From NCBI GenBank assembly GCA_964529415.1, contig CAZGWD010000002.1, positions 222,089 through 286,088 of the forward strand: a stretch of DNA of 64,000 bases, read 5' to 3'. The DNA is from an uncultured Leptospirales bacterium. GTDB taxonomy: Bacteria > Spirochaetota > UBA4802 > UBA5550. Both the position numbers and the translations under genes were made by a program. Below are positions 10,397 to 60,183 of this stretch, in pieces; the stretch's first letter is position 1, and each line of letters starts with the position of its first letter. The notes under the pieces are model-generated. The model was not told the DNA's origin, did not search any database, and was given only the letters and a program-made list of their open reading frames with translations.

Positions 10397-10416
10397 CTAA
10401 AAAAACGGAGAAATAA

Positions 10417-27353: not shown

Positions 27354-27566
27354 ATGAAAATAACACTAAACGGGGAATCAAAAAGTATAGATAAGCCATA
27401 CAAATCTCTTCTGCACTTGTTAAAAGAAAGCGATGTGCAGAACCCTGATCTGGTTTCCGTTCAGCTAAACGGCCAATTTGTTGAAAAGTCATTATTTGAA
27501 TCAACAAATATCAAAGAAAATGATGAAATTGACTTTTTATACTTTATGGGCGGGGGTGCTTCATGA
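27354..27566 (+). CDS. ThiS/MoaD-fold sulfur-carrier protein (HcyS/CysO-like) with a C-terminal extension beyond Gly-Gly
   Basis: 70-aa beta-grasp-sized protein ending ...FMGGGAS. It is translationally coupled to the sulfhydrylase and sits in an operon with an E1 and a JAMM protease. Confidence 0.7.
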   Translation: MKITLNGESKSIDKPYKSLLHLLKESDVQNPDLVSVQLNGQFVEKSLFESTNIKENDEIDFLYFMGGGAS

Positions 27567-29607: not shown

Positions 29608-29617
29608 GGAGAATGAC

Positions 29618-32355: not shown

Positions 32356-32357
32356 CC

Positions 32358-32588
32358 ATGAAGGAAAAGCATTATCGAAGTATTGTCAAAGGATTTTCAT
32401 ACCGGATATTCGGGACAATGGCAACTATAAGCATTTCATATGCAGCAACAGGAAATTCCGGAACAGCCCTTTCAATCGGATTAGCTGATGTGGCAGTAAA
32501 GGTTGCCATCTATTACTTTCATGAACGTGCATGGAATAAAATTCCACTCGGAAAAATAAAAGCGAAACAGGATGATTATCAAATATAG
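32358..32588 (+). CDS. DUF2061-family small membrane protein
   Basis: 76 aa, KGFSYRIFGTMATISISYAATGN; I recall this family as often adjacent to cysH. Confidence 0.55.
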   Translation: MKEKHYRSIVKGFSYRIFGTMATISISYAATGNSGTALSIGLADVAVKVAIYYFHERAWNKIPLGKIKAKQDDYQI

Positions 32589-32597
32589 AGGTGTACC

Positions 32598-33311
32598 ATG
32601 ACTGCAGAAATAGAAAAATATAAAGAGGAAGTAAGGAATCTGAATGCAGAGGCAATAATTGCCTGGGCTCTGGACACATTCGGGCAATCCAGACTGGTTC
32701 TTGCCTCAAGCATGAGTGCCGAGGACCAGTTGCTGACGCATCTGCTTCTATCCTACAACAATCAATCACGGATATTTACCCTTGATACCGGAAGGCTTTT
32801 TCAGGAGACTTATGATACCATGCAAAAAACCATAGAACGCTATAATTTCTGTTACGAAATTTATGCACCTGAAAACAGTGCTGTTGAATCCCTTGTTGCT
32901 GTACACGGTCCGAATCTGTTTTATAAAAACGTTGAGCTTAGAAAAAAATGCTGTACTGCAAGAAAGACGATCCCCCTGCAACGTGTTCTTAAAACTGCGG
33001 ATGCATGGATTTGCGGACTACGAAGGGACCAGGCTGTAACACGGGATTACATAGAACCGGTTGAGTTTGACCATGAGAATAAACTATTCAAAATAAATCC
33101 ACTTTACAATTGGTCTGAACAGATGGTTTGGGATTCTGTTAAAAGTCTCAGCATCCCCTATAATCCCCTGCAGGATAACGGGTTCCGCAGCATTGGTTGC
33201 GCTCCATGCACACGGGCAATTGGCAGGAATGATGATGTCCGTTCAGGAAGATGGTGGTGGGAAGATCCGGAACACAAGGAGTGCGGATTGCACGCCAAAC
33301 CAAAAACGTAA
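32598..33311 (+). CDS. cysH: Adenylyl-sulfate (APS) reductase, thioredoxin-dependent, Fe-S type
   Basis: PAPS/APS-reductase fold with the cluster cysteines KKCC and CAPC plus the catalytic ECGLH motif; 237 aa. Confidence 0.85.
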   Translation: MTAEIEKYKEEVRNLNAEAIIAWALDTFGQSRLVLASSMSAEDQLLTHLLLSYNNQSRIFTLDTGRLFQETYDTMQKTIERYNFCYEIYAPENSAVESLVAVHGPNLFYKNVELRKKCCTARKTIPLQRVLKTADAWICGLRRDQAVTRDYIEPVEFDHENKLFKINPLYNWSEQMVWDSVKSLSIPYNPLQDNGFRSIGCAPCTRAIGRNDDVRSGRWWWEDPEHKECGLHAKPKT

Positions 33312-33349
33312 ATCACGGATTATAAAGAAATTAAAATTTAAACAGAGAT

Positions 33350-34243
33350 ATGGAAACTAAAATGGATAACTTAGAAAAACTTGAATCAAAAAGCATTTAT
33401 ATTCTACGGGAAGCATACAGGGAATTTAAAAACCTATGCATGCTCTGGTCTATAGGCAAGGACAGCACAGTTCTGTTATGGCTTGCGAGAAAAGCTTTTT
33501 TTGGACATGTGCCGCTGCCGCTTGTGCATATTGACACACATTTTAAAATTCCCGAGATGATTGAATACCGCGACAGGCTCGCACTCGACTGGAATCTTAA
33601 CATGGTTTACGGAGAAAACAGCGAGGCGCTGAAAAACAAACTTACTTTTCCGGATAAAAACGCAGACCGCCTTACCTGCTGCAAGAATCTAAAGAGCGAG
33701 GCTCTCAAGCATACTCTTTCAGGAGACTGGCCCAGATACAGGATGGATCATGCAAAGCGCGAATATGTGCCTGATTCAAACAGGGAACCATATACCGGAG
33801 TAATAGTGGGTGTCCGGGCTGATGAGGAAGGAAGCCGTTCAAAGGAGAGGTACTTTTCTCCGCGCGACAGGGAGAATGAATGGAATGTCGGCGATCAGCC
33901 TCCGGAGCTATGGAATCAGTTTAAAACTGATTTTGCGCCAGGCACGCACCTTCGCATACACCCCCTTCTTGACTGGACCGAACTAAACATATGGGAGTAT
34001 ATCGAAAGGGAAAAGATCCCTACAGTATCTTTATATTACGATCAGGGGACTGGCAAACGGTACAGATCACTCGGTTGCTACCCATGCACAAATTCAGTTG
34101 AGTCCGGCGCAAAAAATGCTGCGGATATAATTCTGGAGCTGAAAAGCGGAAAATTTGCAAACATAGCAGAACGTTCAGGCCGAGCACAGGATAAAGAAGA
34201 TGGCGGCGGATTGGAAGCACTCAGAAAAGAAGGATACATGTAA
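33350..34243 (+). CDS. cysD: Sulfate adenylyltransferase subunit 2
   Basis: PP-loop [18 protein letters not shown]; 297 aa. Confidence 0.9.
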
Positions 34244-34342
34244 ATTAAATTTAACAGCAGGCAGATGTGATGATTAACAATACCGATGAATCTTTTTAAT
34301 CATTAATCATCAGCCAAATTATTGCAGATAGAGGAAAATACA

Positions 34343-36130
34343 ATGCGTGAACAGATGAATATAGTAGTAGTAGGACATGTTGACCACGGCAAAAGCACTG
34401 TTATAGGAAGACTACTCGCTGATACCGGCTCGCTTCCTGAAGGAAAACTTGAGCAGGTAAAGCAGACCTGCGAGCGGAATGCACGGCCGTTTGAATATGC
34501 TTTTCTTCTCGATGCCCTTAAGGATGAACAGTCCCAGGGTATAACAATTGACACAGCAAGATGCTTTTTTAAATCCGCAACGCGCGATTACATTATCATA
34601 GATGCCCCAGGGCATGTGGAATTTCTTAAAAACATGATCAGCGGAGCTGCCCGCGCTGAAGCTGCGCTTCTTGTTATAGACGCTAACGAAGGAATCCAGG
34701 AAAATTCAAAACGCCACGGTTATCTTTTGTCCATGCTTGGCATTAAGCAGATTGCAGTGCTTGTAAATAAAATGGATCTTGTCGGCTACAGCAAAAAAGT
34801 TTTTGAATCAGTATGCGGGGAATATGATCTGTTTCTTTCAAAACTTGGATTGCGTCCGGCTGCCTATATACCAATAAGCGCGCGCGATGGCGAAAATCTG
34901 ACAAATGCTGCTGCTGCAATGAAATGGTATAGCGGCAATACAGTTCTTGGCCACATTGATAATTTCACCAGACAGGATGATATCTCTCACAAGCCGTTCA
35001 GATTTCCGGTGCAGGATGTTTACAAATTTACTGAAGCCCTTGACGACCGCCGCATAATTGCAGGTACAGTTGAAACCGGAACAATATCTGTTAATGATAA
35101 AGTCATCTTTCACCCATCCGGTAAAAGATCAGAGATTGTATCGATTGAAGGATTCAATGTGCCGACGCAAACATCTGCCGGTCCGGGTGCAGCAACAGGC
35201 TTTACAATCAAAGATGAGCTGTATCTCCAAAGGGGTGAAGTAATGTGCAGAATTGATGATGAACAGCCTGCAGTCTATTCCCGTTTCAGGGCAAATGTAT
35301 TCTGGATGGGGAACTCACCTATGGTCAAGGGAATAAAATATAAACTTAAAATCGCGACAGCGCGGGTATCAGTCCGGCTTGTTAATATTATTTCAAGCAT
35401 AGATGCAACCGACCTGAGCACATCTTCCGGCAAGCAGCAGATAGACAGGCATGATGTTGCTGAATGCATTTTCGAAACTACAAGGCCGATCGCCTTTGAT
35501 AATATCTCAAACATACAATCCATGGGCAGATTTGTAATAGTCGACAACTATGATATTGCCGGAGGAGGAATCATCACTAATAGCGAAAGCAGCGATGAAG
35601 CGCTTTTTTCAGAACAGATAAAAAAAAGGGAACAGGAGTGGGACAAGGGTTTTGTTACAATCAATGACAGGGAAAACATGTTCAAGCATAAAGCCAAATT
35701 CATTGTTCTTACAGGAACCAAACGCAGCAATGATATTGCCAAACATCTCGAGCGAACGTTATTCAGCAAAAACCATATCTCCTATTACCTGAGCCTTGCA
35801 AATCTGGAAGGCGGTCTTGACAGCGATGTTGTTGATGAGCAGGACAAACGGGATGAGAGGATCCGCCGTCTTGGAGAGCTTGCCCGTATTTTAACGGATG
35901 CAGGAACAATTTTCATTACAGCCATCACTGATGCAAATTCATATGATCTGGATATTTTATCAAGGCTGACATCTCCAAATGAGTTCCTGCATGTTTCTCT
36001 CGGCAGAGAGGTTGAATCAAGCAATGTCAATCACCTTTCACTCGATGAGGACTCCCCTGCTGAACAGCTGACCGGGGCCATTCTTCAGAGTCTGGCCATG
36101 CAGGAAATCATACCCGAGTATTCGATATGA
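34343..36130 (+). CDS. cysN: Sulfate adenylyltransferase subunit 1 (GTPase) with a C-terminal degenerate APS-kinase-like domain
   Basis: [10 protein letters not shown]1 motif, DAPGH and NKMD. The C-terminal ~150 aa resemble APS kinase ([25 protein letters not shown]) but lack the GxxGxGKS P-loop (LTGTKRSND). The start is the ATG at 34343, after GAGGAAAA. Confidence 0.85.
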
Positions 36131-37287
36131 AATCATTTATGCCAGTATGCCTCAATGTCGCAGATTCACGTATTGTGATAATCGGCGGCGGCAAAGTAGC
36201 CCTGCAGAAACTGCAGACAATAATATTATTTTCAGATAAAATTTCTGTATACGCCGGTACTATTCTTGATGAAATTAAAGAACTCAATGTAAGCTGCCAT
36301 GAAAAAGAATACGCTTCTGAATACATTGAAGATGCAATGCTCGTATATGCCTGTACTGACAATGCAGCTTTAAATAGAAGGATTCTTGATGATTGCCGCA
36401 AAACAGGGACTCCCGCCAATATTGCTGATGCGCCGGAACTTTGTGATTTTATATCTCCGGCACTTTTTAAAAAAGGAAACATGAGTGTGGCAGTAAGCTC
36501 CAACGGTGAAGATGCAAAAAAATCTGTAGCGTGGAGGAACATGTTAAGGAGATTTCTAAGCGGCGTTTTACAAAAAGAATCTATTGCTCTGAATTCAGCA
36601 GGAAAAGTGTGGCTTGTCGGAGCCGGGCCTGGTGATCCCGATCTTCTAACAATTAAGGCAGATAAAATCCTCTCCATGGCTGATGTCATTTATTTTGATG
36701 ATCTCCTTGATGACTCCTTTCAAAAACGTTATTCAGCGGAATTTGTGTATGTCGGAAAACGAAAAGGCAGCAACTGCATAACCCAGGAGGAAATCAGCGA
36801 ACAGCTTTATCAGGCTTCAAAATCAGGAAAAATAGTTGTGAGACTCAAGGGAGGAGATCCGCTGATCTTCTCCAGAGGCGGAGAGGAGCTTGATTATCTG
36901 CAGAGCCGGGGAGTTAAAGTTGAGGTTGTCCCGGGAATAAGCGCGTTTCAGGCAGCAGCTGCATCCCAGAAAATACCTCTCTCCCACAGGGGCATATCCA
37001 GAACAATTGGTATTGCATCCGGCCACTATGCCAAAGACGATGATATCCCGGCACTTGCAGCTGACACTGCTGTTTATTATATGGCTTCAACCAAACTAAA
37101 GGAGCTGCAGGCATCTCTTCTGCGCGGAGGAAGAAGCCCTGAAATTCCGGTTGCCCTTATAAGAAATGCAAGCCTCCCTGATGAACAGGTCTGCAGAACT
37201 ACTTTAAAAGATATGGCAGATATAACCATGGCCTCGCCTCTTATAATAATTATAGGGAATTCTGCAAATAATGCCGGTTTTTCCTGA
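36127..37287 (+). CDS. cysG: Siroheme synthase (precorrin-2 dehydrogenase/sirohydrochlorin ferrochelatase N-domain plus uroporphyrinogen-III C-methyltransferase C-domain)
   Basis: N-terminal [14 protein letters not shown] Rossmann fold; C-terminal [22 protein letters not shown] signature; 386 aa. Confidence 0.85.
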
Positions 37288-37457: not shown

Positions 37458-38198
37458 ATGGAGAAGATTATGAAAAAAATACTATTCTTCTTTTTATTAT
37501 ACAGCGCTCTTTTTACTTTTAATACAGCCTATGCTGAAATCAGGGTTGTAATGGTTAAAGGCGAGGCTGCATTAAAAATAGGCCGCAACTGGGCTCCTCT
37601 TGCCATCGGGCAGGTATTATATGAAGGATCAGTCATAAGTACCGGAGCAAATTCATATATCAAACTGAAAATAGATGCTCATGATATGACAATTAAACCT
37701 CTTACTACAATTAAGATTTTTAAAAACCAGACCACCTATGGAAAAAACCTTACAAATATCGGACTAAAATACGGCGGTGTATCAGCCAAAGTTAATAAAA
37801 TGGGCACGCTTAAAACAAATTTTAATATAGCAACTCCTGTAGCAACTTCTTCTGTAAGGGGTACTGAAAAGGAAATCAGCTACGGCTCCTCAACAGGCAT
37901 GAAGGTTAATGTCATTGAAAGCATAGTGCGGGTTCACAACAAATCTGGCGTGGACCGCAGTGCTCAGTCTAACAGCGGTTTTTCACAGAAAGCCGGCTCT
38001 CCGCGGCCAGACAGCCCTGCATCAAACACTAAAGCCAAAGCTCTTGCCAGGATTGCTCCGGATGGTCTTTCAAATGAAGAGGTCGAATCTGCAAATAATT
38101 CAACAGACAGCAATCCAAAAGATATTCAGGAACAGATGGATTCGCTTTTCATGGGAAAAGGATCAACAAAAATTAAATTCAATCTTGTTTGGCCGTAA
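37458..38198 (+). CDS. Secreted FecR-like domain protein
   Basis: Signal peptide plus ...IATPVATSSVRGTEK, similar to the 16814 protein. It lies upstream of the CHASE2 cyclase. Confidence 0.5.
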   Translation: MEKIMKKILFFFLLYSALFTFNTAYAEIRVVMVKGEAALKIGRNWAPLAIGQVLYEGSVISTGANSYIKLKIDAHDMTIKPLTTIKIFKNQTTYGKNLTNIGLKYGGVSAKVNKMGTLKTNFNIATPVATSSVRGTEKEISYGSSTGMKVNVIESIVRVHNKSGVDRSAQSNSGFSQKAGSPRPDSPASNTKAKALARIAPDGLSNEEVESANNSTDSNPKDIQEQMDSLFMGKGSTKIKFNLVWP

Positions 38199-48432: not shown

Positions 48433-49425
48433 TCAATTTAACTTCAAACCTTTTAACAGCACTCCAATCTCTCCGACAAACTCAAGACCGGCATTCCTCC
48501 CTGTTCCTGAAAATATCAATTCCCTGCCCTTGGAGTTTTTTCTATAAAACTTTATTTCAATTTTTGAAGAAAGCGACTCATTTACTCTTGATACCATTTC
48601 TCCCTTTTCAGGTGCTGGCAGTTCTACTCCCTCAGTCCTTTCAGCTTTTATTTCCAGATATGATTCCTTATTTTCAACAAATATATCTATATAATCATCA
48701 TTTACTAAAAGTTTTTCTACTCTGGAGCCATTATATGTTGTAAATTTATGAAGCTTTCCTCTGAGAAGAAACCCAAATATGTATCCGGTAAAATATCTCC
48801 CCAACCACGGTATTTTTGCTATTGATCCGAATAATGAAACTCCAGGTTCATTAAAATGATTTGTCTGCATCCAGATCCAGGCCTGCGGCATGGAAATACC
48901 CCAGTCTTTTTCAATATAGCCCTTCCCTTCTTTTAAATCAGTCTTTTCTCCGTTTAATTCAATAAATCCGTTTATCTTATTATCAAAACTGATATTTGCA
49001 TGGTAGCATTCCATGAAAGGCACAAACCTGTACCATCCCATAACACCTGGTGAAAAAACTGAAACAGGCCACGGTATAATATTGCTCATATTAATATCAG
49101 CAATAATCTTATTGGCTCCGTCATCCAGATCAAGTTTAAGCTGTTCAGTGCTGAAAAAGTTTTTCCCGATTTTTATCTCAAACTTTTTTGCGTTCGCCCG
49201 ATATTCATTTACAGAGTATCTAAAGTAGGTCATTTTATGGTTCCGGGCATCAAAGACCATGACAAAGGCATGGCTTTTTGTGCTGTCTTTAGAAAGGGAT
49301 ATCCCGGCTATAACAGCCAGGGCTTTTTTCTCGTTCTTATCCACCATTTTGAAATACCAGCCTTCGAAGTAATCTCTGGTTTTTCCTATTCCCTGAAAGG
49401 CTGCTGGTGTGTAAATATTAGACAA
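48433..49425 (-). CDS. Hypothetical protein, possibly tocopherol-cyclase-like
   Basis: YFEGWYFKMVD and IEKDWG segments are reminiscent of that family; the link is weak. Confidence 0.3.
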   Translation of the reverse strand: MSNIYTPAAFQGIGKTRDYFEGWYFKMVDKNEKKALAVIAGISLSKDSTKSHAFVMVFDARNHKMTYFRYSVNEYRANAKKFEIKIGKNFFSTEQLKLDLDDGANKIIADINMSNIIPWPVSVFSPGVMGWYRFVPFMECYHANISFDNKINGFIELNGEKTDLKEGKGYIEKDWGISMPQAWIWMQTNHFNEPGVSLFGSIAKIPWLGRYFTGYIFGFLLRGKLHKFTTYNGSRVEKLLVNDDYIDIFVENKESYLEIKAERTEGVELPAPEKGEMVSRVNESLSSKIEIKFYRKNSKGRELIFSGTGRNAGLEFVGEIGVLLKGLKLN

Positions 49426-49710
49426 TAATTACTCCTCTTAAAAAACTATGATTTTTCAAATATATTTATATTTATAAAATTTCTTAAAAGTATTTTTTTA
49501 TTTATTTTCAAGTGAAGACCGTTCTTAAAATAGAATGTTACCCGCTGCTTAACATGATACATACATCAGCATGCCGGAATTAAAAAAGCAACTATAATTC
49601 ATTAAAAATTTTTCTGCCGGAAGCAGGAGATAATAAATTTTCAATTTAGATCATGTAATAAAAAAAGATTGCATTTTGAAAAAATATATTCATAATGATA
49701 AATAATCATT

Positions 49711-52182
49711 ATGAATATATTAAAATTAATACTAACTGTTTTAACAGGAGTTTTAATTCTTTCAGCCTGCGCCAATAATGCAGGCAAAGAACGCCTGAGC
49801 TATGCTGTTAACGGATTTCTTGATCTTTCAGGACGGGACCTGAAAAATGGCGACACAATCAGACTCGATGGCGAATGGGAATTCTACTGGAACCGGCTGC
49901 TGACACCTGATGATTTTTCATCTGCCGAACCTCCTGAGAAAACCGGAAACATCACCATACCATCATACTGGAACGGATATAATACCGGCATAGGAACTGC
50001 TGGAGGAGAAGGATTCGCCACATACAGACTTAAAGTGAAAATTAAAGACGGAGGAAGACTTTATGCTTTAAGAATAAAACACATGTTCACTGCATACAGG
50101 TTATGGGTAAATAATAAAATTGTGGCTGCAAATGGAACAGTCGGCAGGGACAGAAAATCAATGGAACCGCAGTTTCTTCCCCTCGTAGCTGTTTTTAATC
50201 CTCAATCCGATGAATTTCAGATTATAATCCAGATTTCTAATTTTTATCATGCAAACGGCGGCTTCTGGGATTCAATTTCTCTTGGAGATGATGAAACTAT
50301 CAGGTTCGGGCAGATACAGTCTCTGTTTTTTGAAATTTTTTTATTTGGCGTCCTTATTATAATGTGCATCTATTATATGGCTATTTTTATTCTGAGACGC
50401 CAGGACCATACATATTTATTTTTCAGTCTGTTGTGTTTTATAATTGCACTGAGAATACCATTTGTAGGAGAACGCTTTTTCATTTATTTTTTCCCGTGGC
50501 TGGACTGGGAGTTCTCTGAAAAAATCGCTTTTCTTACAGCTAATTTCGGAATCGTAATCGGAAATCTTTTTCTTTACTGGCTCCTGAAAAAGGATTATTC
50601 AAGGCTGATAATAAAAATCAGCACCGGATTTGGAATCACATACAGCCTTTTTGTTATTTTAAGTTTTTCGCGGTATTACTGGTACTCGCTGTATTTATTA
50701 TATGCAATTTTTCTGATATGGCTGTTTTACGATTTCTTCATAATAATAAAAGCTTCGATAAAAAAAAGAGAAGGCGCTGCATTTCTTATAACAGGTATAG
50801 CCTTTATATTTGCAGCTGTTGTTCTTGAAATCCTCTATCAGCTCCGGATAATAAATATCGGTCATGTGGCGCCATTCGGTTTATTTATTTTTATTATTAT
50901 GCAGGCGCTTATGCTGTCTTACAGGTATTCATTGTCATTTGAGAGGGTGGAAATGTTATCCCGTGAAAAAGCCGCTCTTTTTACAAGCGCCATTCAGATT
51001 ATTTCCTCATTGATTCTTGACAGCTCCACCAGGCTTTATGAAAAAACCCAGAATGTTACGAGAATATCAGTAATGCTTGCGCAAAAACTCGGTTATGATA
51101 TAGAAAAGATCGAGGAGATCAACATAGCATCGCTGCTTCACGACATCGGGATGATCGGGCTTCAGAATATTACTTCTGAATGGAGCGGAAAACCAAGCAA
51201 CGATGAAAAGCGGATGATCGAAAATCATCCAAGACGAAGCATTTATATCATCAGAAATCTCAGAGAGCTGGATGGCGTTAAAACCATCATTGAACAGCAC
51301 CACGAGTCGTATGATGGAAGCGGATTCCCAGCCGGTCTCAAAGGTGCACAGATTAACAAAGGCGCATCTATTATCAGGATTGCGGATGATTTTTTTACTA
51401 TGCTTGCCATTCCGGACTACCAGGATATTGACAGGAAAGAAAAAATAATCCGGTACATAAATGAACAGAAAGGACGCATTTATCCGCCTGATGTTGCTGA
51501 TGCTTTTATATCTCTCATAAATGATGAAAATCTGCTTTACGAAGCTCATAGAGACGATATCTCATCAAGCGAAGAAAACGGCACGCTGACATGGAGAATG
51601 CCGAGCGCCCTTCACCTGGAAAGCTTAATGATTGCACGCGTAATGGACAAACTTAAAGAGCTGACTGATATTGATGAGGCCTCCATAAATTCTTTTGAAT
51701 TCAGCATAGGAGAAGTGGTGCGTAATGCTGTAATTCACGGAAATAAATATAATATAAACAAGTTTGTAACTGTGAGGCTCAGGGTGGGTGATAATCTTTC
51801 AATGAGCAATGGATATAAAAAAGTTGAGATATCTGTTATTGATGAAGGTGAAGGCATGGACTTCAATGTTTACACCCACTTCAAACAGCTGAGATCGGAT
51901 TTCAGCAGCGCAATTAAGTATATCAGGGAACAGAGAGATATAATAACTGATGCAGAAAGAAAAAGCTCTTTCACGAAAATAATCAAAAATTTTGAAGAAT
52001 TCCAGCTTAAATACTTCTTTGATTTCAATAAATTCATGCAGAGAAAAGGGGCTTACCTTTCAGGCGGTTTAGGGCTTCTTTATGTGCTGCGGACATTTGA
52101 CAATGTAGAATTCAGGAAAATTACAGATGAACACAGGGTATGCGGCATGGAAATAATTATGGAAAAAAACATCAGCTATTAA
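49711..52182 (+). CDS. 7TMR-DISM receptor fused to an HD-GYP phosphodiesterase and a C-terminal RsbW-like HATPase (Ser kinase) domain
   Basis: 7TMR-DISMED2 ectodomain and 7 TM segments. HD-GYP reads LLHDIGMIGL...HHESYDGSGFPAGLKG. HATPase_c reads EVVRNAVIHGN...ISVIDEGEGMD...SGGLGLLYV. 823 aa. Confidence 0.75.
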   Translation: MNILKLILTVLTGVLILSACANNAGKERLSYAVNGFLDLSGRDLKNGDTIRLDGEWEFYWNRLLTPDDFSSAEPPEKTGNITIPSYWNGYNTGIGTAGGEGFATYRLKVKIKDGGRLYALRIKHMFTAYRLWVNNKIVAANGTVGRDRKSMEPQFLPLVAVFNPQSDEFQIIIQISNFYHANGGFWDSISLGDDETIRFGQIQSLFFEIFLFGVLIIMCIYYMAIFILRRQDHTYLFFSLLCFIIALRIPFVGERFFIYFFPWLDWEFSEKIAFLTANFGIVIGNLFLYWLLKKDYSRLIIKISTGFGITYSLFVILSFSRYYWYSLYLLYAIFLIWLFYDFFIIIKASIKKREGAAFLITGIAFIFAAVVLEILYQLRIINIGHVAPFGLFIFIIMQALMLSYRYSLSFERVEMLSREKAALFTSAIQIISSLILDSSTRLYEKTQNVTRISVMLAQKLGYDIEKIEEINIASLLHDIGMIGLQNITSEWSGKPSNDEKRMIENHPRRSIYIIRNLRELDGVKTIIEQHHESYDGSGFPAGLKGAQINKGASIIRIADDFFTMLAIPDYQDIDRKEKIIRYINEQKGRIYPPDVADAFISLINDENLLYEAHRDDISSSEENGTLTWRMPSALHLESLMIARVMDKLKELTDIDEASINSFEFSIGEVVRNAVIHGNKYNINKFVTVRLRVGDNLSMSNGYKKVEISVIDEGEGMDFNVYTHFKQLRSDFSSAIKYIREQRDIITDAERKSSFTKIIKNFEEFQLKYFFDFNKFMQRKGAYLSGGLGLLYVLRTFDNVEFRKITDEHRVCGMEIIMEKNISY

Positions 52183-53161
52183 TAATACTGAAAATTAATT
52201 CTGTAGATTCTCTTGGCATAAGATAGAGTTTAAGCTGTTCAGTTAATTCAGGCAGTGCCAGATATTTTGCTGTTGATATAATTACTGGTTCAAATGAACC
52301 ATCTTCCTTAATTGAATAAATACCGCCCGAGCTGGTATAAAACATTATTTTTTTATTTTTTCCGATTACCTCATCGCCTCTGCCCAATGCAATAATTTTC
52401 TCTCCAATTCTGATATCTCTAAAAAAAGTATATGTCAGGGCTACAGTAATACCGCCCTGGCCTGATAAAAATAATCCGCCCCATCCCATGATTTCATCTA
52501 TCAGGGCTAACGGAGCAACCGGGTGTACTGTTTCTTCATTTTTAAACCAGAAAAAATTATTATCATCTTCTCTGTCAAGTCCTGCCAGTGAATAAACAAT
52601 TTTTTCATCTGAATTGTTTAATAATTTAAACTCTCTTTTCAAACCAGGATACTTTCTATCATATCCGCAGACAAGACAGTCTTTATAGCGCGGCAAGGTC
52701 ATGTTTTCATTATTGCGTACAATGCATTGGGATATATGTTGTTCATTAAAAAATCCCGGTGTATATTGTTCATTACATTTATAGTATACTTTTGCTGCAA
52801 TATAAGGATGCTGATTGCCTGCAACAGATATTGAACCGGATGCTCCATATTCTTCAGGAGAAACTTTTAACAGGACTGAATCTCCTATCTGAACCTTTGC
52901 TCCTCCAAGATGAAAATCAATTTTTTTCGGGAAGATCCCGGAATTATTTTCCGGATAATTATCAAGGCCTGATATCAGTTCTATAATTGCACCCATGCCG
53001 AAACCGCCGTGCGGCAATCCAATCCATCCTTGAGTTCTTCCATCCATTATGAATTCTGTATAGAGTTCTTTTGTGTTGTCGTCTTTTTTAAAACCTCTGA
53101 TTAAAAATCCGTCTTCAGAACAGCCTATGCAATGGTTGTGATTCTTTATTTTATATTTCAT
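52172..53161 (-). CDS. Hypothetical protein with two CxxC pairs
   Basis: 329 aa; CIGC near the N-terminus and CLVCG mid-protein; no confident family assignment. Confidence 0.35.
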   Translation of the reverse strand: MKYKIKNHNHCIGCSEDGFLIRGFKKDDNTKELYTEFIMDGRTQGWIGLPHGGFGMGAIIELISGLDNYPENNSGIFPKKIDFHLGGAKVQIGDSVLLKVSPEEYGASGSISVAGNQHPYIAAKVYYKCNEQYTPGFFNEQHISQCIVRNNENMTLPRYKDCLVCGYDRKYPGLKREFKLLNNSDEKIVYSLAGLDREDDNNFFWFKNEETVHPVAPLALIDEIMGWGGLFLSGQGGITVALTYTFFRDIRIGEKIIALGRGDEVIGKNKKIMFYTSSGGIYSIKEDGSFEPVIISTAKYLALPELTEQLKLYLMPRESTELIFSIINS

Positions 53162-53188
53162 TTTATTTCCAAAATTATTTTTTTATAA

Positions 53189-53294
53189 GGAAAAGTCCGT
53201 TATATAATTAAAAAATCTCTTAAGCAGCCCTGCTTTTATTGAGACAGATTTATAATTTACTAAAGATAAAAGCAACTATAATTCTTGACTTTCC
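53189..53294 (+). repeat. Copy C of the ~105-nt intergenic element (GGAAAAGTCCG ... AAAGCAACTATAATTCTTGACTTTCCG)
   Basis: Nine-bp inverted termini. It lies in the divergent promoter region between the 52172-53161 gene and 53340. Confidence 0.6.
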
Positions 53295-53339
53295 GTACGC
53301 GTATTGAAAATATTAATTACATTTTACTGAGGTTAAGAG

Positions 53340-55217
53340 ATGAAAAGCAATGCCGCAGCTCTGATATTTTTTTTATGCTCAATTATATTTCAGATTAATG
53401 GATTGAATCACCTCCAAGCTGATCCTGCTGTAATTGTAGACGGATCGCCTTCTGAGTGGGGGTCTCTTGACGCTGAGCAATTTATAAAACCTGCAAGTGC
53501 CTCAACCGGAATTCAGATTGCATCGCTATCTGTACACAGGAAGGGTGAATTTTTCTTTTTTCTCATGACGTTTCAAGACAGCATAGATACAAATCCCAAA
53601 TTAAGGTATTTCATAAACTTCAATACAGATGATAACAACATAAGCGACTTCCAGGCTGCTGTCTCTCACGGCACAAAAGGTGATACAAGCAGGTTTAAAA
53701 AAGACTGGTCTACTTATGATTTCAAAACAATGGACACAGCGCCCGGATTCAAGTCGGCCATGGGGAGTGCTGTGGAATTCCAGATTCCGGTATCCATGTT
53801 TAAAGGACGAAACGCTTTTGGTTTTACAGCAGGTGTATGGGACACTTCAAAGGCAATTGCCCTTGATTCATTCAGGGGGTATTATACTAAACTGAAAATA
53901 CACTATACCCTTACTGTTCTCGACCCTGGAAAACATCTCGTAAAAATAGATGCAAAATTTACCGGTTTTCCGGATGAATATATCAACCTGCATTTTCCGC
54001 CTAATTATCCGCAGGCTGGAGAGATCACAGTCAAAGATTTAAAAGCCGCCGGCTCTGACAGAGTGAAGCTGGATATATCCCGAAAGAAAAGTACATACTT
54101 AATCAAAACCGGAAAATCTGCCAAAGAATTTTCACTCAGCTATATGCTGGCGATGAACATGTACCATGACTCACCTGTACGCGGACCTGCAGGATATTTA
54201 TGTAAAAGCTACATGCTCACAAGCACATGCTGGAGTCTCATCTCGCCCGTAACCGAAGAAGCGCGCGAGTACCGGCTCACTTTGAATCTTCCTGAAGGCT
54301 GGGTGCCGGTTGTGCCGTGGAAAAAGTCAGGAGCAGAATTTATAGAAACTGACACGTCTCTGTTCAGACAGACGACATTCGGAGCGGGGCTGTTTGATAT
54401 ACAGAAAAAATGGATTGCAGGCACTGAAGTGACTGTTGCGGTTGATTCGCATTTCGATGAAAAGTTCCGTAATGAGCTGTTTAAAAATTCTTTCATGTCG
54501 TTCGCGTTCATCAAGTCTATATTCAACGCACAGGGGCCTGCAGCGCACCTGTCAATATTCGCCAAGCCGGAGGGAGAAAACGAATGGCAGTCTTTCAACG
54601 AGAACGGACTCAGCCAGGGGGAAGCAGTCAATGATATGAACAGCGCAGTGTACCAGTTTACACACAGGGTCTTTCATTCATTCAACGCGTTTTATCCGGC
54701 AGGCATGGATATTGAACCTACATGGTTTCTTGAAGGTGTCAACGAATACTATTGTGCGCTCGCCAAAATTAAAGCCGGTACAGAGGCTCCGCTTCATTCG
54801 CTATCTGATTTTTATTTCAATGAATATATTAAAAAGCGAGCAAAACTTGACGCACCGCTTATTGGGAACACCCGCTTTCCTGCTGACTGGGAAAAAGAAA
54901 ATTTTCTCGCATACAAAAAAGGGGCTCTTGCAGCGCTTCTTCTTGATATTGAGATCAGGCGCCTGTCAGACCATAAGGCCTCTTTGAATGATCTGATCTC
55001 CGCTATATACAAAACACACGGCCAGTTCAAAGGAATAAAAGTTACAGATGAGATTATTGAAAAAACCGCTTCCATGGTCACAGGCAAGGATATGAAACCA
55101 TTTTTCAATAAGTATATCTACACTGACACAAAGTACGACATGGTCAAGCTATTCAGTGATGACAACAGCAACGGGATATGCAATGCAGCTGAAGAAATCA
55201 TACTGCATTTAAAGTAA
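53340..55217 (+). CDS. Secreted protein with a zinc-peptidase-like C-terminal half, possibly non-catalytic
   Basis: Signal peptide; the C-terminal region FTHRVFHSFNAFY....EGVNEYY resembles an M1/M61-type HExxH...E arrangement but with HRxxH; 625 aa. Confidence 0.4.
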   Translation: MKSNAAALIFFLCSIIFQINGLNHLQADPAVIVDGSPSEWGSLDAEQFIKPASASTGIQIASLSVHRKGEFFFFLMTFQDSIDTNPKLRYFINFNTDDNNISDFQAAVSHGTKGDTSRFKKDWSTYDFKTMDTAPGFKSAMGSAVEFQIPVSMFKGRNAFGFTAGVWDTSKAIALDSFRGYYTKLKIHYTLTVLDPGKHLVKIDAKFTGFPDEYINLHFPPNYPQAGEITVKDLKAAGSDRVKLDISRKKSTYLIKTGKSAKEFSLSYMLAMNMYHDSPVRGPAGYLCKSYMLTSTCWSLISPVTEEAREYRLTLNLPEGWVPVVPWKKSGAEFIETDTSLFRQTTFGAGLFDIQKKWIAGTEVTVAVDSHFDEKFRNELFKNSFMSFAFIKSIFNAQGPAAHLSIFAKPEGENEWQSFNENGLSQGEAVNDMNSAVYQFTHRVFHSFNAFYPAGMDIEPTWFLEGVNEYYCALAKIKAGTEAPLHSLSDFYFNEYIKKRAKLDAPLIGNTRFPADWEKENFLAYKKGALAALLLDIEIRRLSDHKASLNDLISAIYKTHGQFKGIKVTDEIIEKTASMVTGKDMKPFFNKYIYTDTKYDMVKLFSDDNSNGICNAAEEIILHLK

Positions 55218-55229
55218 ACTGAAAGTCTT

Positions 55230-57191
55230 TCACACAATATCGATGATGATCAGTGTAAAATCATCATCGAAAGCTTTGAAAGAATTCCATTCGCTTAAAG
55301 CATTGTATATTAATTCTATTGTTTCATTTATAGAAAGATTTCTATTCTTCATAAAAAAAGCATTCAGCCTTTCCTGCCCGAATATCTCTCTCCTTTCGTT
55401 ATGAACTTCAACCAGACCATCTGTATAGAGAATTATTCTGTCACCTGAATCTATATTAAACTCAAAAATTTCCAGATCTATATCAGGCTTGAATCCAATA
55501 ATCATTCCACGGGGTTTGTATTGATGCATTTCCGCTTCACTGTTTTTACAGGATATATGAAGCAGCAGTTCATGACCGGCCCTTGCGAATTTCGCTTTTT
55601 TTTCCAATGCGCTGATATAACAATATCCTGCTGTCAGAAAATTGCCTTCCATCTTGTCAAAGAGATACCTGTTCAAGCCCTTAATAAACAGATCCGGATT
55701 TGCATATACTGGAGCGAGTGTACTGAATAAAATTTTAACCATTGAAGCTATCAAAGAGGCAGGTATTCCATGACCGGAAACATCAGCAATGAGTACTCCA
55801 ATCTTATCCTGTTCAGGAAAATGAAAATTATAGAAATCACCGCTTATATCATCTGCCGGGATATATTTTACTCCTATGCCGAACGCGCTGGATTCAGGAA
55901 GTATTTCTGGAACATTAGCGAGCTGAATTTTTCTTGCTATGGAAATTTCATTTTCAAGTCGTGCCAGCCGTTTACCCTCTTCCATCTTTTCCAGCAGAAT
56001 AATATTCAGCTGCTCAGAAGTATTCAGATTATAAATAAACCTGTTTACGAGCTGAAGTCCAATAAGGATCAACATGAAAGGAACTCCAATAGGATAAAGC
56101 GGAACGCCTCCTTCAAATAAATGAAGGCTGAATACAAGAATATCATATATACCAAAAATAAAAACAGGGAGAAGCGTTAAAAAAAGCATACGCCCTTTCT
56201 TATTTCCGGAAATGAGCTGGCGTATGGAAACAATGACAATATCCACTATATATATAGGAATAAGCAGCAGAAAAATATTTCTCCAGAGAATAATATAATA
56301 ACGGTCCTGAGACAATGACATAAGTAATGCAAAGGTAACCGGCAGAAAAAGATATATCACTATTCTTTTCCATTTAACACCGACATCTAAATAACTTCTG
56401 AAAAAGAAAGCAAGAAAAGGTGGAAAAAAAATAAGACCTATTGCGCATATTTTAAAAATTGTATTGGAAGACAAGGGAAGATATGGATAGAGATTTTCAA
56501 CAAACTGAAGAATCGTCATATCAGAGAGTAAAAAGGTCGCACTTGCGTAATATAAATACACGATCTCCTTTTTTCTTTTCAGATATATTGTTATGAATAA
56601 TAGAGAAAAACTCATTAGGAGAATCCATAAAGCATGTATGAATTCTATCTGTATAAAATTTTTATACATGAATTCAAAGTTGCCGCTTTCTTCATCAATG
56701 ATCCTAATCGGCGATATGAACCAGAGTTCAGCATTAAAATAATTGATTATATCTATACTGTTTTCTCCATGGATTAAGAATTCAGAATGTAATGGATAAT
56801 TGCGGAACTTGGACCATCCTGATTTGAAGTCAGGCGGGAATTTGCCGGTATTCCCGATTTTTTTCCCATTGATATAGACTATATCAGTGTTCATTATCTC
56901 TCCGGCCTGAAAGACCAGATTTTCCGAGGATGTGTTATTTATCTTTACTGTTTTTCTATATAGTATATATCCACTTGAAATATTATTTTTTTCAGCAATT
57001 ATTTCGAATAGTCTTCTATTGGGCAGTTGCACTGATTCCCATAAGGTATTTTCTGCAGGGGGGTAATCCTTTTCAGAATTTATCAGACAGTATTTCCATG
57101 TACCGGACAAATCGATTTCCGTACCGGCAAACGCTTCGCTTGCGGCTATTAAAGAAATCATTATGAATAATGTGATATATTTGAGCCGCAT
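55230..57191 (-). CDS. 7TMR-DISM receptor fused to a PP2C/SpoIIE-type phosphatase (RsbU-like)
   Basis: Signal peptide, 7TMR-DISMED2 ectodomain (IDLSGTWKYCL), 7 TM segments, and a C-terminal SpoIIE/PPM domain GVLIADVSGHGIPASLIASMVK...LYTDGLVE; 653 aa. Confidence 0.8.
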   Translation of the reverse strand: MRLKYITLFIMISLIAASEAFAGTEIDLSGTWKYCLINSEKDYPPAENTLWESVQLPNRRLFEIIAEKNNISSGYILYRKTVKINNTSSENLVFQAGEIMNTDIVYINGKKIGNTGKFPPDFKSGWSKFRNYPLHSEFLIHGENSIDIINYFNAELWFISPIRIIDEESGNFEFMYKNFIQIEFIHALWILLMSFSLLFITIYLKRKKEIVYLYYASATFLLSDMTILQFVENLYPYLPLSSNTIFKICAIGLIFFPPFLAFFFRSYLDVGVKWKRIVIYLFLPVTFALLMSLSQDRYYIILWRNIFLLLIPIYIVDIVIVSIRQLISGNKKGRMLFLTLLPVFIFGIYDILVFSLHLFEGGVPLYPIGVPFMLILIGLQLVNRFIYNLNTSEQLNIILLEKMEEGKRLARLENEISIARKIQLANVPEILPESSAFGIGVKYIPADDISGDFYNFHFPEQDKIGVLIADVSGHGIPASLIASMVKILFSTLAPVYANPDLFIKGLNRYLFDKMEGNFLTAGYCYISALEKKAKFARAGHELLLHISCKNSEAEMHQYKPRGMIIGFKPDIDLEIFEFNIDSGDRIILYTDGLVEVHNERREIFGQERLNAFFMKNRNLSINETIELIYNALSEWNSFKAFDDDFTLIIIDIV

Positions 57192-57395
57192 AAATTATTA
57201 AATTTCCTGTTTGTTATATGATCATTATAGAATGTTTGTTGAAGAATTGCAATTTATTTTTTATTAACCGGTGGCTGGTTCGATTCCGCTTACCAGCTGA
57301 TAACCCCTGTGTCAGCAGCAATTTTTCAGCTTTTAAAATTAGCCCCTATTTCAAAATTTCACGCAAAAAACCTTCTCTGACTGGATCATATTTAC

Positions 57396-57641
57396 ATGAA
57401 TTATAAAACTTTCTGCATAGAAACCTTCGGCTGCAAGATGAATAAAAACGATTCAGAGCTGATCTCCGCTATATACAAAACACACGGCCAGTTCAAAGGA
57501 ATAGAAGTTACATATGAGATTATTGAAAAAACCGCTTCCTTGGTCACGGGCAATGATATGAAACCATTTTTCAATAATTATATCTACTCGGACACAAGGT
57601 ACGACATGAATGTTTATCAAGTTTTGTTATTGAAATATTAG
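57396..57641 (+). pseudogene. Chimeric ORF fusing a diverged copy of the miaB promoter/5' end to a copy of the 3' end of the 53340-55217 gene
   Basis: The first 24 aa (MNYKTFCIETFGCKMNKNDSELIS) parallel the MiaB N-terminus at 58864. The next ~50 aa are ~93% nt-identical to 54995-55160. The junction lies in the shared CTGATCTC. Confidence 0.6.
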
Positions 57642-57702
57642 GGATGCTTTTTTTAATTATACAGACATTCTAAAACTATAAAAAATTCAGGCGGGAAATG
57701 AC

Positions 57703-58686
57703 ATGAAACGCGGTTTGAACTTATTTTCGTATTTACTATTAATTTCAGGTATTTTATTTCTGGGCAGTCTAAATTCAATTTTGAAAGCTGAAGCTGTATT
57801 TATGAATGATGGCTCAATTATTGAATGTAAAGTCATAAGGGACACTGATAAAGCAATTACAATTCAACCGAATACCGGACAGGCCAGGGTAATTCATAGA
57901 AAGGACCTCATTCGTGTACTATATAGTGACGATTTCAGGAATAAAGTATTTATTTACAAGCTTGATGACAGGCTTGTTGAAGGCTATATTGTATATGAAG
58001 ACAGGGATAACTATACGATAAGAGAAGATCTTTCATCTCCAATTGAGCTTACAATTGCAAAAAACAAAGTAAATTTCATTTCAAAGAAAAAAGTTGTTCC
58101 GACTATTATAGAAAAAAAGGCTGAAGCAGAGAAAGGAGTTGAGGTCGAGGAAAGCAAACGTCTTTTTGGAATAGACTGGGGGCTGGGAATCGGGTTTCCT
58201 ATTTATTTCAAAAAATATATTTTATCTGATGAGACTGGTGCAAATACTTACAATGCTACTGCAGGAATATTAAGTTTATTGGGGATTAAAATACATACTT
58301 TTTTTGATTTCAGATTCAATATACTCAGCTGGTTAAGCGCAGGGGCGGAAATAGGAATTAATCTTTTCCCGAATGTAGCAAATTTAGCTGGCGGAGATTA
58401 TGTATATGCAGTATATCCTGTTTTTAATCTTGATATACCATTAAGAGGATTTTTAAGATTCGGGAAAAAAAACTACTACGGACAGCTTTTCGGAGGATAT
58501 TACCTTGGTGTTTTACCAATAGTATCAATGGGGTCTAACATCTATTATGAGAGAGGAGGAGAATTGGGAACCAGGATTAATTTATGGGGATTTTTCCTCG
58601 AATTTTCATTTGTTTTTGCAAATACGGAAGCTAACAGTTATGACCATGCAAGATTTGCTCTTGGTTATACCGGAAGAATATTTTAA
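57703..58686 (+). CDS. Hypothetical outer-membrane beta-barrel-like protein
   Basis: Signal peptide, alternating beta-strand-like segments, C-terminal aromatic residue (...TGRIF). Confidence 0.4.
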   Translation: MKRGLNLFSYLLLISGILFLGSLNSILKAEAVFMNDGSIIECKVIRDTDKAITIQPNTGQARVIHRKDLIRVLYSDDFRNKVFIYKLDDRLVEGYIVYEDRDNYTIREDLSSPIELTIAKNKVNFISKKKVVPTIIEKKAEAEKGVEVEESKRLFGIDWGLGIGFPIYFKKYILSDETGANTYNATAGILSLLGIKIHTFFDFRFNILSWLSAGAEIGINLFPNVANLAGGDYVYAVYPVFNLDIPLRGFLRFGKKNYYGQLFGGYYLGVLPIVSMGSNIYYERGGELGTRINLWGFFLEFSFVFANTEANSYDHARFALGYTGRIF

Positions 58687-58863
58687 TCAGTAAGTTGTTA
58701 TATTAAATCAAAATAAACCGCCTTAATCCAGGGCGGTTTATTTATTTGTTTTTTATTTATAGCTATTTTCGATATAAAAACAAAAAGTTTATCATAACGT
58801 CCCCTATTCCTCACGAATATAAAAATTTCTTGTAAAAAACCTTCCCGAAGTGAAACTTGCAAT

Positions 58864-60183
58864 ATGAAATATAAAACCTTCTACATTGAAACATTCGGCT
58901 GCCAGATGAATAAAAACGATTCCGAGCTGATCTCTCTATCCATGCTGGAACACGGATTTACTGAAACATCAGTGGAAGAGGATGCAGACATTATAATTTT
59001 CAACGGATGCTCGGTAAGGGAAAACGCGGAGTCGCGTGCTGTTTCAAGAATCCGGTCAGTTAAGAACAGAAAAGAAAAGATTGTCGTGGCAGCAGGCTGC
59101 ACAGCCCAGAGGATCGGGAAAGAAATCATTGAAAAGAAAAAAGCGACAATTGTAGTTGGACCTTATCAGGCACCGGAAGCAGGAAAAATAATTTCTGATT
59201 ATATAGCAAAACGCAATTCACCGAAAATATACCTCTCCCAGGATAAAAAAGATTTTCAGGGAAGATTAAATTCCGGTATTGCGGAACATAGAAGGGAACA
59301 TCCCTGGCATGCGTGGGTTACGATAACGCACGGCTGCGGGAACAACTGTACATACTGTATTGTACCTGAAGTAAGAGGAAATCTCATTTCTTTCCCGTCT
59401 TCTGAAATCATTGAATTTATAAAAACCTTAACAGGAACAGGGGTAAGGGAAATTACCCTGCTCGGGCAGAATGTAAATCAGTACGGCCAGGACCTGAATG
59501 ATATTACATTTAACAGCCTGCTTGAAAAATGCACGCGAATTGACAGCATTGAGAGAATTCATTTCATGACTTCACATCCCAGAGATTTCAGTGCTGACAT
59601 TATAGACACCATTGCAGGAAATGAAAAAATTTCAAAATCAATTCATCTTCCGCTGCAGAGCGGCTCAAATAAAATTCTCGCTGCGATGAACAGAGGGTAT
59701 ACCATTGAAAAATATATTGAGATAACAGATATACTGAAAAAGAAAATAAATGATTATTCCATTACAACTGATTTCATAGTAGGATTTCCAGGCGAGACCG
59801 ACAGAGATTTCAGAGACACGATAGATGCAGTTAAAAAAATTCAGTTCCACGATGCGTTTATGTTTGCCTATTCGCCGAGAAGCGGAACACCCGCTGCAGC
59901 GCTTAAAGAAACACTGACCAAAGAACAAAAACAGGAAAGACTCGGCGAGCTCATTGACATACAGAGAGTGATATCACATGAAAAGCTCGTAAGCAGAATC
60001 GGCCGCATAGATGAGGCAACAGCAGAAAGAGCAAGCAGACGCTCTCCGGGAAAACTCATGGGGAAAACAAATCTTAATCACCCTGTTATATTCGAGGGAG
60101 TTGAGAGCGATATCGGGAAAAACCTGAAAATAAAAATCAACGGCGTTAAGGGCTCATCTCTTCAGGGGAGCAAAGTCCCTTGA
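58864..60183 (+). CDS. miaB: tRNA-2-methylthio-N6-dimethylallyladenosine synthase (MiaB-family radical-SAM methylthiotransferase)
   Basis: FYIETFGCQMNKNDSE N-terminal MTTase domain, radical-SAM CGNNCTYC, and a C-terminal TRAM domain; 439 aa. Confidence 0.8.
   Translation: MKYKTFYIETFGCQMNKNDSELISLSMLEHGFTETSVEEDADIIIFNGCSVRENAESRAVSRIRSVKNRKEKIVVAAGCTAQRIGKEIIEKKKATIVVGPYQAPEAGKIISDYIAKRNSPKIYLSQDKKDFQGRLNSGIAEHRREHPWHAWVTITHGCGNNCTYCIVPEVRGNLISFPSSEIIEFIKTLTGTGVREITLLGQNVNQYGQDLNDITFNSLLEKCTRIDSIERIHFMTSHPRDFSADIIDTIAGNEKISKSIHLPLQSGSNKILAAMNRGYTIEKYIEITDILKKKINDYSITTDFIVGFPGETDRDFRDTIDAVKKIQFHDAFMFAYSPRSGTPAAALKETLTKEQKQERLGELIDIQRVISHEKLVSRIGRIDEATAERASRRSPGKLMGKTNLNHPVIFEGVESDIGKNLKIKINGVKGSSLQGSKVP

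Follow-up and report, generated by a model that had tools for sequence, protein, structure and literature searches.

The known links between partner switching and cyclic di-GMP (c-di-GMP) signaling, two major bacterial decision systems, use separate proteins. In SiaABCD of P. aeruginosa and in HsbR-HsbA-HsbD, a diguanylate cyclase is governed by a trio of PP2C phosphatase, RsbW-like kinase, and STAS-type protein (PMC7647112, PMC8457831, PMC5085249); these are separate proteins of one operon, and it is the STAS-like protein in its unphosphorylated form that activates the target GGDEF cyclase. In Streptomyces, the circuits of RsiG and RmdB also link c-di-GMP binding or turnover to sigma/anti-sigma control, with unrelated domains (EAL/GGDEF and a coiled-coil anti-sigma factor) and no GHKL kinase (PMC7005675, PMC13232838). 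None of SiaABCD, HsbR-HsbA-HsbD, RsiG, or RmdB fuses a kinase to a c-di-GMP domain. Here, we describe a receptor gene in which a phosphodiesterase-type HD-GYP domain is fused to an RsbW-like domain. It lies in a 64,000-nt stretch of DNA from an uncultured Leptospirales bacterium (contig CAZGWD010000002.1; hereafter, the window). We refer to this open reading frame (ORF), 49711-52182 on the forward strand, as gene A, and to a nearby ORF for a sensor phosphatase, 55230-57191 on the reverse strand, as gene B.

Our main finding is that the HD-GYP and RsbW-like domains of gene A form a rare, conserved, and apparently undescribed output cassette of Spirochaetota. An earlier note on this DNA had called the combination of HD-GYP with an anti-sigma-type kinase unusual, and had proposed that genes A and B make up a split partner-switching module. 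The combination is indeed rare, but it is not unique: it recurs as a conserved cassette, which the note did not recognize. The note's observation was largely right, while its interpretation was partly right at the level of the network and unsupported as a gene pair. We favor the reading, with a probability of roughly 0.5, that gene A acts as a sensor kinase in a partner-switching network, with its cassette tied to c-di-GMP. By analogy, its closest functional counterparts would be SiaABCD and HsbR-HsbA-HsbD. Unlike those systems, the cassette kinase is covalently fused to a phosphodiesterase-type domain, with no STAS or PP2C gene in its operon; with no such operon, no GGDEF domain among the scanned window ORFs, and HD-GYP fused to the kinase, the locus is not a SiaABCD-like switch.

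A conserved HD-GYP and RsbW-like cassette

Gene A and its parts are as follows.

49711-52182, forward strand: gene A, an 823-aa receptor with a C-terminal HD-GYP and RsbW-like cassette (ORF, Pfam, full-length relatives)
49711-49770, forward strand: signal peptide with lipobox (…LILSAC), from the translation
49780-50319, forward strand: ectodomain, residues 24-203, a galactose-binding-like β-sandwich (AlphaFold predicted local distance difference test [pLDDT] 85, predicted template modeling score [pTM] 0.85)
50326-50925, forward strand: 7TMR-DISM seven-helix membrane module, residues 206-405 (PF07695, 84.4 bits, E=1.3e-23)
51001-51510, forward strand: divergent HD-GYP domain, residues 431-600 (PF13487 [HD_5], 89.8 bits, Pfam span residues 431-589)
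51298-51330, forward strand: motif HHESYDGSGFP of the HD-GYP domain, which also has ENHP and an HD dyad at residues 477-478
51511-51591, forward strand: fixed-length linker between the cassette domains, residues 601-627, with a conserved Y..x(D/E)DI motif
51592-52179, forward strand: RsbW/SpoIIAB-type GHKL domain, residues 628-823 (Pfam, profile against the PDB, AlphaFold with Foldseek, motifs)
51712-51744, forward strand: N-box EVVRNAVIHGN of the RsbW-like domain, which also has a G1 box (DEGEGMD) and a G2 box (GGLGL)
51862-52065, forward strand: cassette-specific helical-hairpin insertion of ~68 aa between the G1 and G2 boxes, at the position of the ATP lid

Clustered at 90% identity, the full-length relatives of gene A fall into about 14 groups; they are 40-100% identical to gene A, and all are metagenomic Spirochaetota. 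To these we add relatives found with a profile of the C-terminal domain alone, searched against 1.84 billion representative proteins. Twenty-one clusters match the whole domain at E<1e-30, and below them the scores fall by more than 20 orders of magnitude, to proteins of RsbW size (110-160 aa) that match only the first half of the profile, aligning to positions of about 20-110. Every scanned cluster long enough to show both domains (20/20) has HD_5 directly upstream of the RsbW-like domain. Beyond gene A's own family, HD_5 lies immediately 5' of HATPase_c_2 in 17 of 18 Pfam-scanned clusters, and the exception, P0245, is a 261-aa fragment on a 930-bp contig. The linker between the two domains averages 31% pairwise identity in the alignments. 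A third database search, made with profile A3, added five fragments and nothing more. All cassette members with a source name, which are a few named metagenome-assembled genome (MAG) records, are Spirochaetota.

What stands ahead of HD_5 varies: 7TMR-DISM, HAMP, dCache_1-HAMP, GAF, REC or REC-GAF, and MASE6, as well as proteins of ~1,700 aa with Pkinase, AAA_16, TPR, and GAF domains. At least six kinds of input module use the cassette, and one MAG can hold several cassette genes with different sensors. This recurrence behind varied inputs means that the cassette behaves as a standard output module. It is a conserved output module of Spirochaetota, and neither a one-off fusion nor half of a local gene pair. 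In one contig (L136, 2535-9281), two cassette genes stand tail to tail, with dCache_1-HAMP and REC-GAF inputs; an EAL-CBS-GGDEF gene follows directly, and then hybrid histidine kinases.

The two domains differ in how well they are kept. In the RsbW-like domain, N-box residues E668, R671, N672, H676, G677, and N678 are invariant in 21/21 clusters, as are the Asp and first Gly of the G1 box, which is intact in 19/21. Residues of the HD dyad, on the other hand, are lost in 7/21 clusters, five of which also lack the second His of HH. As the kinase motifs are perfect where HD/HH residues are gone, selection seems to act on the kinase domain and not on HD-GYP catalysis. Judged by these alignments, the RsbW/SpoIIAB-type domain is the most strongly constrained half of the cassette.

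A full-text literature search for HD-GYP together with HATPase_c_2 gave a single unrelated paper and no description of the cassette, and two Leptospira c-di-GMP surveys do not list it. The survey of HD-GYP architectures by Galperin and Chou, in which HD-GYP is typically C-terminal, does not mention HATPase, RsbW, anti-sigma, or 7TMR (bioRxiv 10.1101/2021.11.05.467447). In the cassette, by contrast, HD-GYP is internal.

The RsbW/SpoIIAB-type domain

The HATPase_c_2 model (PF13581) scores gene A at 26.4 bits, just under the Pfam gathering cut-off of 27.4. The gene A orthologues nonetheless have a precomputed PF13581 match, and other cassette members score 28-42 bits. Against the PDB, the family profile best matches RsbW 6m36 (E=2.8e-4) and also matches SpoIIAB. 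The AlphaFold model of the domain (pLDDT 79) has SpoIIAB (E=7e-7), UsfX, and RsbW 6m37 (TMt 0.86, root-mean-square deviation 2.6) as its top Foldseek matches in the PDB, whereas the CA domains of CheA, MprB, and CckA are far poorer matches. Given the orthologues' Pfam matches, the profile-PDB matches, and the fold, the assignment to RsbW/SpoIIAB is sound. The RsbW-type HATPase that the earlier note had proposed is therefore real in spite of the Pfam score, with N, G1, and G2 boxes intact, and gene A belongs with RsbW/SpoIIAB both by its GHKL motifs and by its fold. A histidine-kinase reading was rejected: no HisKA/DHp was detected, and fold and profile favor RsbW/SpoIIAB over a CA domain.

Compared with RsbW and SpoIIAB, the domain has the same fold (Foldseek TM-scores of 0.78-0.87, normalized to the target), the same three ATP-binding boxes, and an N-terminal strand-helix with a "PS" motif, and STAS genes lie close by in some cassette relatives. 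RsbW and SpoIIAB, however, are 140-aa stand-alone dimers, while the cassette domain is a C-terminal fusion behind the HD-GYP of a membrane receptor. It also bears the ~68-aa insertion at the ATP-lid position, modeled as two helices (model residues 109-135 and 139-159), and shares no operon with a sigma factor or STAS gene. Short forms occur as well: P0014 (693 aa) and L096/L097 (4810-6831 and 7206-9539) stop shortly past the N-box or G1 box, without lid and G2, and could be truncated variants, frameshifted genes, or pseudogenes.

Since the structures matched best are complexes of SpoIIAB with sigma F and with SpoIIAA, gene A might instead be a membrane-tethered anti-sigma factor. Its RsbW-like domain would then hold an alternative sigma factor at the membrane, and release of that sigma factor would be set by a periplasmic signal and by c-di-GMP bound to a degenerate HD-GYP. 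There are precedents in RsiG, a c-di-GMP-controlled anti-sigma factor (PMC7005675), and in RmdB, a phosphodiesterase in a sigma/anti-sigma circuit (PMC13232838). No sigma-factor gene, however, is found among the Pfam-annotated neighbors of any cassette gene, and no sigma factor, GGDEF, EAL, or PilZ among the scanned window ORFs of at least 150 aa; the 68-aa lid insertion could also change the partner surface. We consider an anti-sigma role very unlikely.

A divergent HD-GYP domain

The nearest solved relatives of the gene A HD-GYP in the PDB are PmGH (4mcw, E=2e-17) and PA4781 (4r8z). With these phosphodiesterases and RpfG it shares the HD_5/HD fold, the HD dyad, ENHP, the HHExxDGxG(Y/F)P motif, and an equivalent of PmGH D305 (D559). 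It is thus an HD-GYP domain, and the earlier note correctly reported GFP in place of GYP. The weight put on that change was misplaced. PA4781, deposited as a c-di-GMP phosphodiesterase, has GFP too, and Y285A hardly affects PmGH (PMC4159591), so GYP-to-GFP is the least informative substitution. The variant is restricted to the window's own subclade.

The telling substitutions lie elsewhere in the domain. Set against the PmGH reference residues (E185, H189, H221, D222, H250, H276, H277, and D305, plus D183, K225, and D308), gene A does not have the full catalytic and metal-binding set: residues 431-454 contain no His, and Met481 and Phe562 stand in place of K225 and D308, while the remaining six ligands are kept. 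Similar losses mark the family. The PmGH D183-x-E185-T-G-x-H189 segment is replaced by a family-specific SSxR(L/V/I)(Y/H)E with no conserved His (21 clusters), so that the cassette reads SSxR(L/V)YE where phosphodiesterases read DxETGxH. In 19/21 clusters the Lys of HDIGK (K225) has given way to Met, Leu, or Ile; the D308 position is hydrophobic (V/I/F) in 17/21, and the K317 position is Gln in 21/21. In PmGH, H189A, K225A, D183A, and D308A abolish activity, with Ala at K225 or D308 as damaging as the loss of a metal ligand, while R314A and K317A, like Y285A, have little effect (PMC4159591). An attempt to name a single residue for the first His ligand failed, as H189 falls opposite N448, K445, or E444 (the last via the relative P0129, by eye) in conflicting registers; with three possible registers, our claim is limited to the absence of a conserved His in this segment.

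Of the eight metal ligands, gene A retains six or seven, so its HD-GYP may still be able to bind metal and c-di-GMP. Such binding is plausible, but efficient hydrolysis is doubtful. This bears on the possibility that gene A is mainly a signal-regulated c-di-GMP phosphodiesterase, with the GHKL domain as an ATP-sensing or dimerizing regulatory appendix that has no protein substrate. Receptors of this kind normally have HD-GYP as their output domain (bioRxiv 10.1101/2021.11.05.467447), gene A retains its HD dyad along with ENHP, HHE, G(F)P, and D559, and besides the GFP of PA4781 there is RpfG, an active phosphodiesterase despite a Phe at the H189 position (PMC4159591). Yet K225 and D308, at either of which an Ala change is severe in PmGH, are missing in nearly all members; a third of the clusters (7/21) lack HD or HH residues and still have perfect kinase motifs; and the closest relatives of the GHKL domain are all protein kinases or anti-sigma factors. 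A role mainly as a phosphodiesterase is, in our view, unlikely.

The sensor half of gene A

Receptors of the 7TMR-DISM type reportedly combine an ectodomain, a 7TM module, and a variable cytoplasmic output such as a kinase, a cyclase, GGDEF, or PP2C, and gene A likewise has an ectodomain, 7TM module, and cytoplasmic output. Relatives of its sensor carry kinase, cyclase, GGDEF, and PP2C outputs, whereas an HD-GYP plus HATPase_c_2 output was not met in the searched literature. The lipobox Cys20 is nearly invariant, in at least 90% of family members. The best Foldseek matches of the ectodomain model are the N-terminal sugar-binding domains of glycoside hydrolase family 2 (GH2) β-glucuronidases and β-galactosidases (E≈4e-9). 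We take this GH2-N-like, galactose-binding-type β-sandwich to be of the same broad fold class as the 7TMR-DISMED ectodomains.

The earlier note had counted three 7TMR-DISM receptors in the window, with DISMED2 ectodomains. The 7TM module is clear in gene A (84.4 bits) and in the cyclase gene at 25149 (110 bits), but falls below the cut-off in gene B (25.2 bits against 29). As for the ectodomains, the cyclase gene has DISMED2, but neither gene A nor gene B has a Pfam match to it (E<=0.01). Gene A is thus a 7TMR-DISM protein by its membrane module and not by a DISMED1/2 ectodomain: the Pfam 7TMR-DISMED2 model misses its β-sandwich.

Gene B as a proposed partner of gene A

Gene B and the genes that separate it from gene A are as follows.

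55230-57191, reverse strand: gene B, a 653-aa sensor phosphatase with signal peptide, ectodomain, 7TM module, and SpoIIE/PP2C domain (ORF, Pfam, translation)
55236-55811, reverse strand: SpoIIE/PP2C catalytic domain, residues 461-652 (PF07228, 135 bits, full-length profile; metal-binding Asp motifs present)
56049-56618, reverse strand: 7TM module, residues 192-381 (PF07695, 25.2 bits, under the cut-off of 29)
52172-55217: two genes between A and B, 52172-53161 on the reverse strand and 53340-55217 on the forward strand, with no family match above threshold

Both ORFs, of 823 and 653 aa, are present as the earlier note had described them, and so is the RsbU-like phosphatase domain of gene B. 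By its PF07228 match and its Asp motifs (GDFYN, ADVSGHG, YTDG, and DDDF all kept), gene B is a SpoIIE/RsbU-type PP2C, and its phosphatase looks catalytically intact. That the two genes have "the same type of sensor" is true in part: their sensor halves are homologous and colinear but distant, with 22% identity over 337 aa (BLASTP, E=1e-5) and a sub-threshold 7TM module in gene B.

Are genes A and B then a dedicated split pair, a kinase and a phosphatase that answer the same periplasmic signal and act on one shared distant STAS protein or novel target? They lie 3 kb apart, the PP2C motifs are intact, the sensor halves are homologous and colinear, and sensor-SpoIIE genes adjoin cassette genes in three other contexts as well (L137, L095, and L007). 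The phosphatases in those contexts, however, do not share the sensor of their cassette; similarity is confined to HAMP. A search for matched-sensor kinase/phosphatase pairs as a recurring pattern gave only an alignment of HAMP regions in L137 (E=0.001) and no similarity in L007 or L095. The gene A sensor is itself closer to proteins of other organisms (36-41% identity) than to that of gene B (22%), and SpoIIE genes are frequent in these genomes, with four within 10 kb in L137.

Synteny points the same way. The 82% identical gene A orthologue (L001, from an uncultured Leptospirales MAG) has no SpoIIE gene within 4 kb, nor do the 75%, 63%, and 62% identical orthologues (L138, L003, and L139), which are mutually syntenic. 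The gene A subclade shows three genomic contexts, none common to its members. In the window, genes A and B are convergent and two unrelated genes intervene, which puts them in separate transcription units. With no STAS gene in the window, an A-B adjacency that is not conserved, and separate transcription units, the locus is not a complete partner-switching module of the RsbU-RsbV-RsbW type. A split module of genes A and B, as the earlier note had proposed, is thus unsupported, and we regard a dedicated pair as distinctly unlikely.

The two intervening genes have few features of their own. The reverse-strand gene (52172-53161) is convergent with gene A and overlaps its stop codon by 11 nt, and the forward-strand gene (53340-55217) has a weak Peptidase_M61_N match (E=0.003) as its sole family signal.

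Partner-switching genes near cassette genes

Across the family, genes of partner-switching type do recur close to the cassette. In L001, a STAS gene is located 1.1 kb upstream of the cassette gene; another lies 1.2-1.5 kb upstream in a synteny conserved over five clade-2 contigs, and L009 has, 4.2 kb upstream, a fusion of a cyclic nucleotide monophosphate (cNMP)-binding domain with STAS. The distance between the cassette gene and a sensor-SpoIIE gene is 0.2 kb in L137 (divergent), 1.6 kb in L095, 1.8 kb in L007, and 3.1 kb in the window. Altogether, a STAS or SpoIIE gene is found within 4 kb in 6 of 14 independent cassette contexts, compared with 2.5 expected from the outer flanks of the same loci (133 kb; P≈0.03). 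This enrichment makes a partner-switching role plausible but unproven. The output that the earlier note had suggested is thus plausible at the network level from the gene contexts, while the specific A-B pair is unsupported.

Two of these loci have further peculiarities. In L137, a single cassette gene has four SpoIIE-domain genes, linked to HAMP, CBS, and PAS, less than 10 kb away (2867-9767 and 16254-18044), which illustrates how dense sensor phosphatases are in these genomes. In L085/L087 (contig Ga0116178_10000095), a cassette gene and a STAS neighbor occur twice, at 120-2657 and 4129-4602 on the reverse strand and at 6115-6588 and 8060-10597 on the forward strand, as an apparently perfect inverted copy that is either a palindromic locus or an assembly artifact.

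Proposed mechanism

Under the favored reading, gene A would be a one-component membrane receptor with a lipid-anchored β-sandwich ectodomain, serving partner switching as a sensor kinase. A periplasmic ligand, possibly a glycan by analogy of fold, would act through the 7TM bundle on the cytoplasmic cassette. The RsbW-like domain is predicted to phosphorylate a single-domain STAS protein encoded elsewhere in the genome, to bind it in an ATP-dependent way, or both. Sensor-SpoIIE phosphatases, with gene B as one candidate, may reverse this action at the level of the network. As residues needed for PmGH catalysis are missing, the HD-GYP domain would more likely couple c-di-GMP to the kinase, by binding or slow hydrolysis, than serve as a bulk phosphodiesterase.

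Several observations weigh against this reading. In the HD-GYP domain, a nearly invariant Glu444 could stand in as a metal ligand, and RpfG is active without H189 (PMC4159591), so the domain may well be active. The segment with the first metal ligands can also be aligned in any of three registers. As to the contexts, the enrichment is weak, was found post hoc, and has a background of 133 kb only, in genomes rich in SpoIIE. STAS genes are missing both from the 64-kb window and from the 10-kb neighborhood of the L003, L138, and L139 orthologues. Orthology between the STAS proteins of L001 and clade 2 would indicate a cognate pair, but neither is among the other's BLASTP matches at E<=1e-3.

A stronger version of the c-di-GMP link is possible, though on the whole doubtful: the cassette may be a new c-di-GMP effector, in which a catalytically impaired HD-GYP detects c-di-GMP, or some other cyclic dinucleotide related to it, and thereby controls the RsbW-type kinase or anti-sigma domain fused to it. 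If so, the phosphorylation of STAS proteins would combine two inputs, the level of a second messenger and a signal from outside the cell. In a more exotic variant, the kinase would phosphorylate the conserved Ser pair of SSxR(L/V)YE, which replaces the acidic metal-binding loop, and so switch the metal site on or off.

Other features of the window

The sequence has a G+C content of ~38%, and a gene neighboring the A/B region has a Leptospira-specific NCBIfam domain; together with the 82% identical orthologue in a Leptospirales MAG, these features assign the window to an uncultured spirochaete resembling Leptospira. As the earlier note had stated, the gene at 25149 encodes 7TMR-DISMED2, 7TMR-DISM_7TM, and a cyclase (Pfam; 7TM 110 bits), the gene at 40123 encodes CHASE2 and a cyclase (Pfam), and STAS is absent from the window: tblastn, jackhmmer, and a hidden Markov model of 46 STAS sequences at E<=10 all came back empty. 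There is also no second RsbW-like domain in the 64 kb. A second phosphatase, which the note lacked, lies at 22329-23138 (reverse strand), a stand-alone 269-aa Ser/Thr phosphatase of the PP2C_2 type, 2 kb upstream of the DISMED2/7TMR-DISM adenylate cyclase gene (25149-26978). A promoter scan of 49300-57700 was uninformative, with 32 promoter-like sites against 28 expected.

Next to gene B, a 71-nt direct repeat (90% identical) with a 28-nt upstream repeat is found at 57348-57466 and 58817-58934. The duplicated sequence comprises the promoter-proximal region of a MiaB/RimO-like radical-SAM gene (58864-60183) together with its first ~24 codons, and an 81-aa ORF (57396-57641) starts with the duplicate copy of this 5' end. 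A Lepto_7_Nterm-like gene (57703-58686) sits in the 1.47 kb that separate the two copies. The arrangement resembles an insertion in which the 5' end of the target gene was duplicated.

FecR-domain genes occur in the window at 16814-17770 and 37458-38198. They also occur upstream of two cassette orthologues, in L138 at 370-1365 (reverse strand; ~240 bp away, divergent) and in L003 at 6462-7421 (reverse strand; ~2.5 kb away). In Leptospira, a FecR-like protein regulates an extracytoplasmic function (ECF) sigma factor (PMC13118517). The remaining clusters are ordinary housekeeping: a heme biosynthesis operon (hemA/C/D/B/L/E-like) at 321-6669 on the reverse strand and a sulfate-assimilation/siroheme cluster at 27563-37287 on the forward strand.

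Implications for spirochaete signaling

All cassette members with a source name come from uncultured Spirochaetota, which limits practical impact. For the biology of these bacteria, a covalent cassette of a phosphodiesterase-type and an RsbW-type domain under at least six types of sensor suggests that partner switching and c-di-GMP signaling are directly wired together in some spirochaetes. The combination of an invariant kinase with a decaying hydrolase predicts that the HD-GYP domain senses a nucleotide and thereby regulates a serine kinase.

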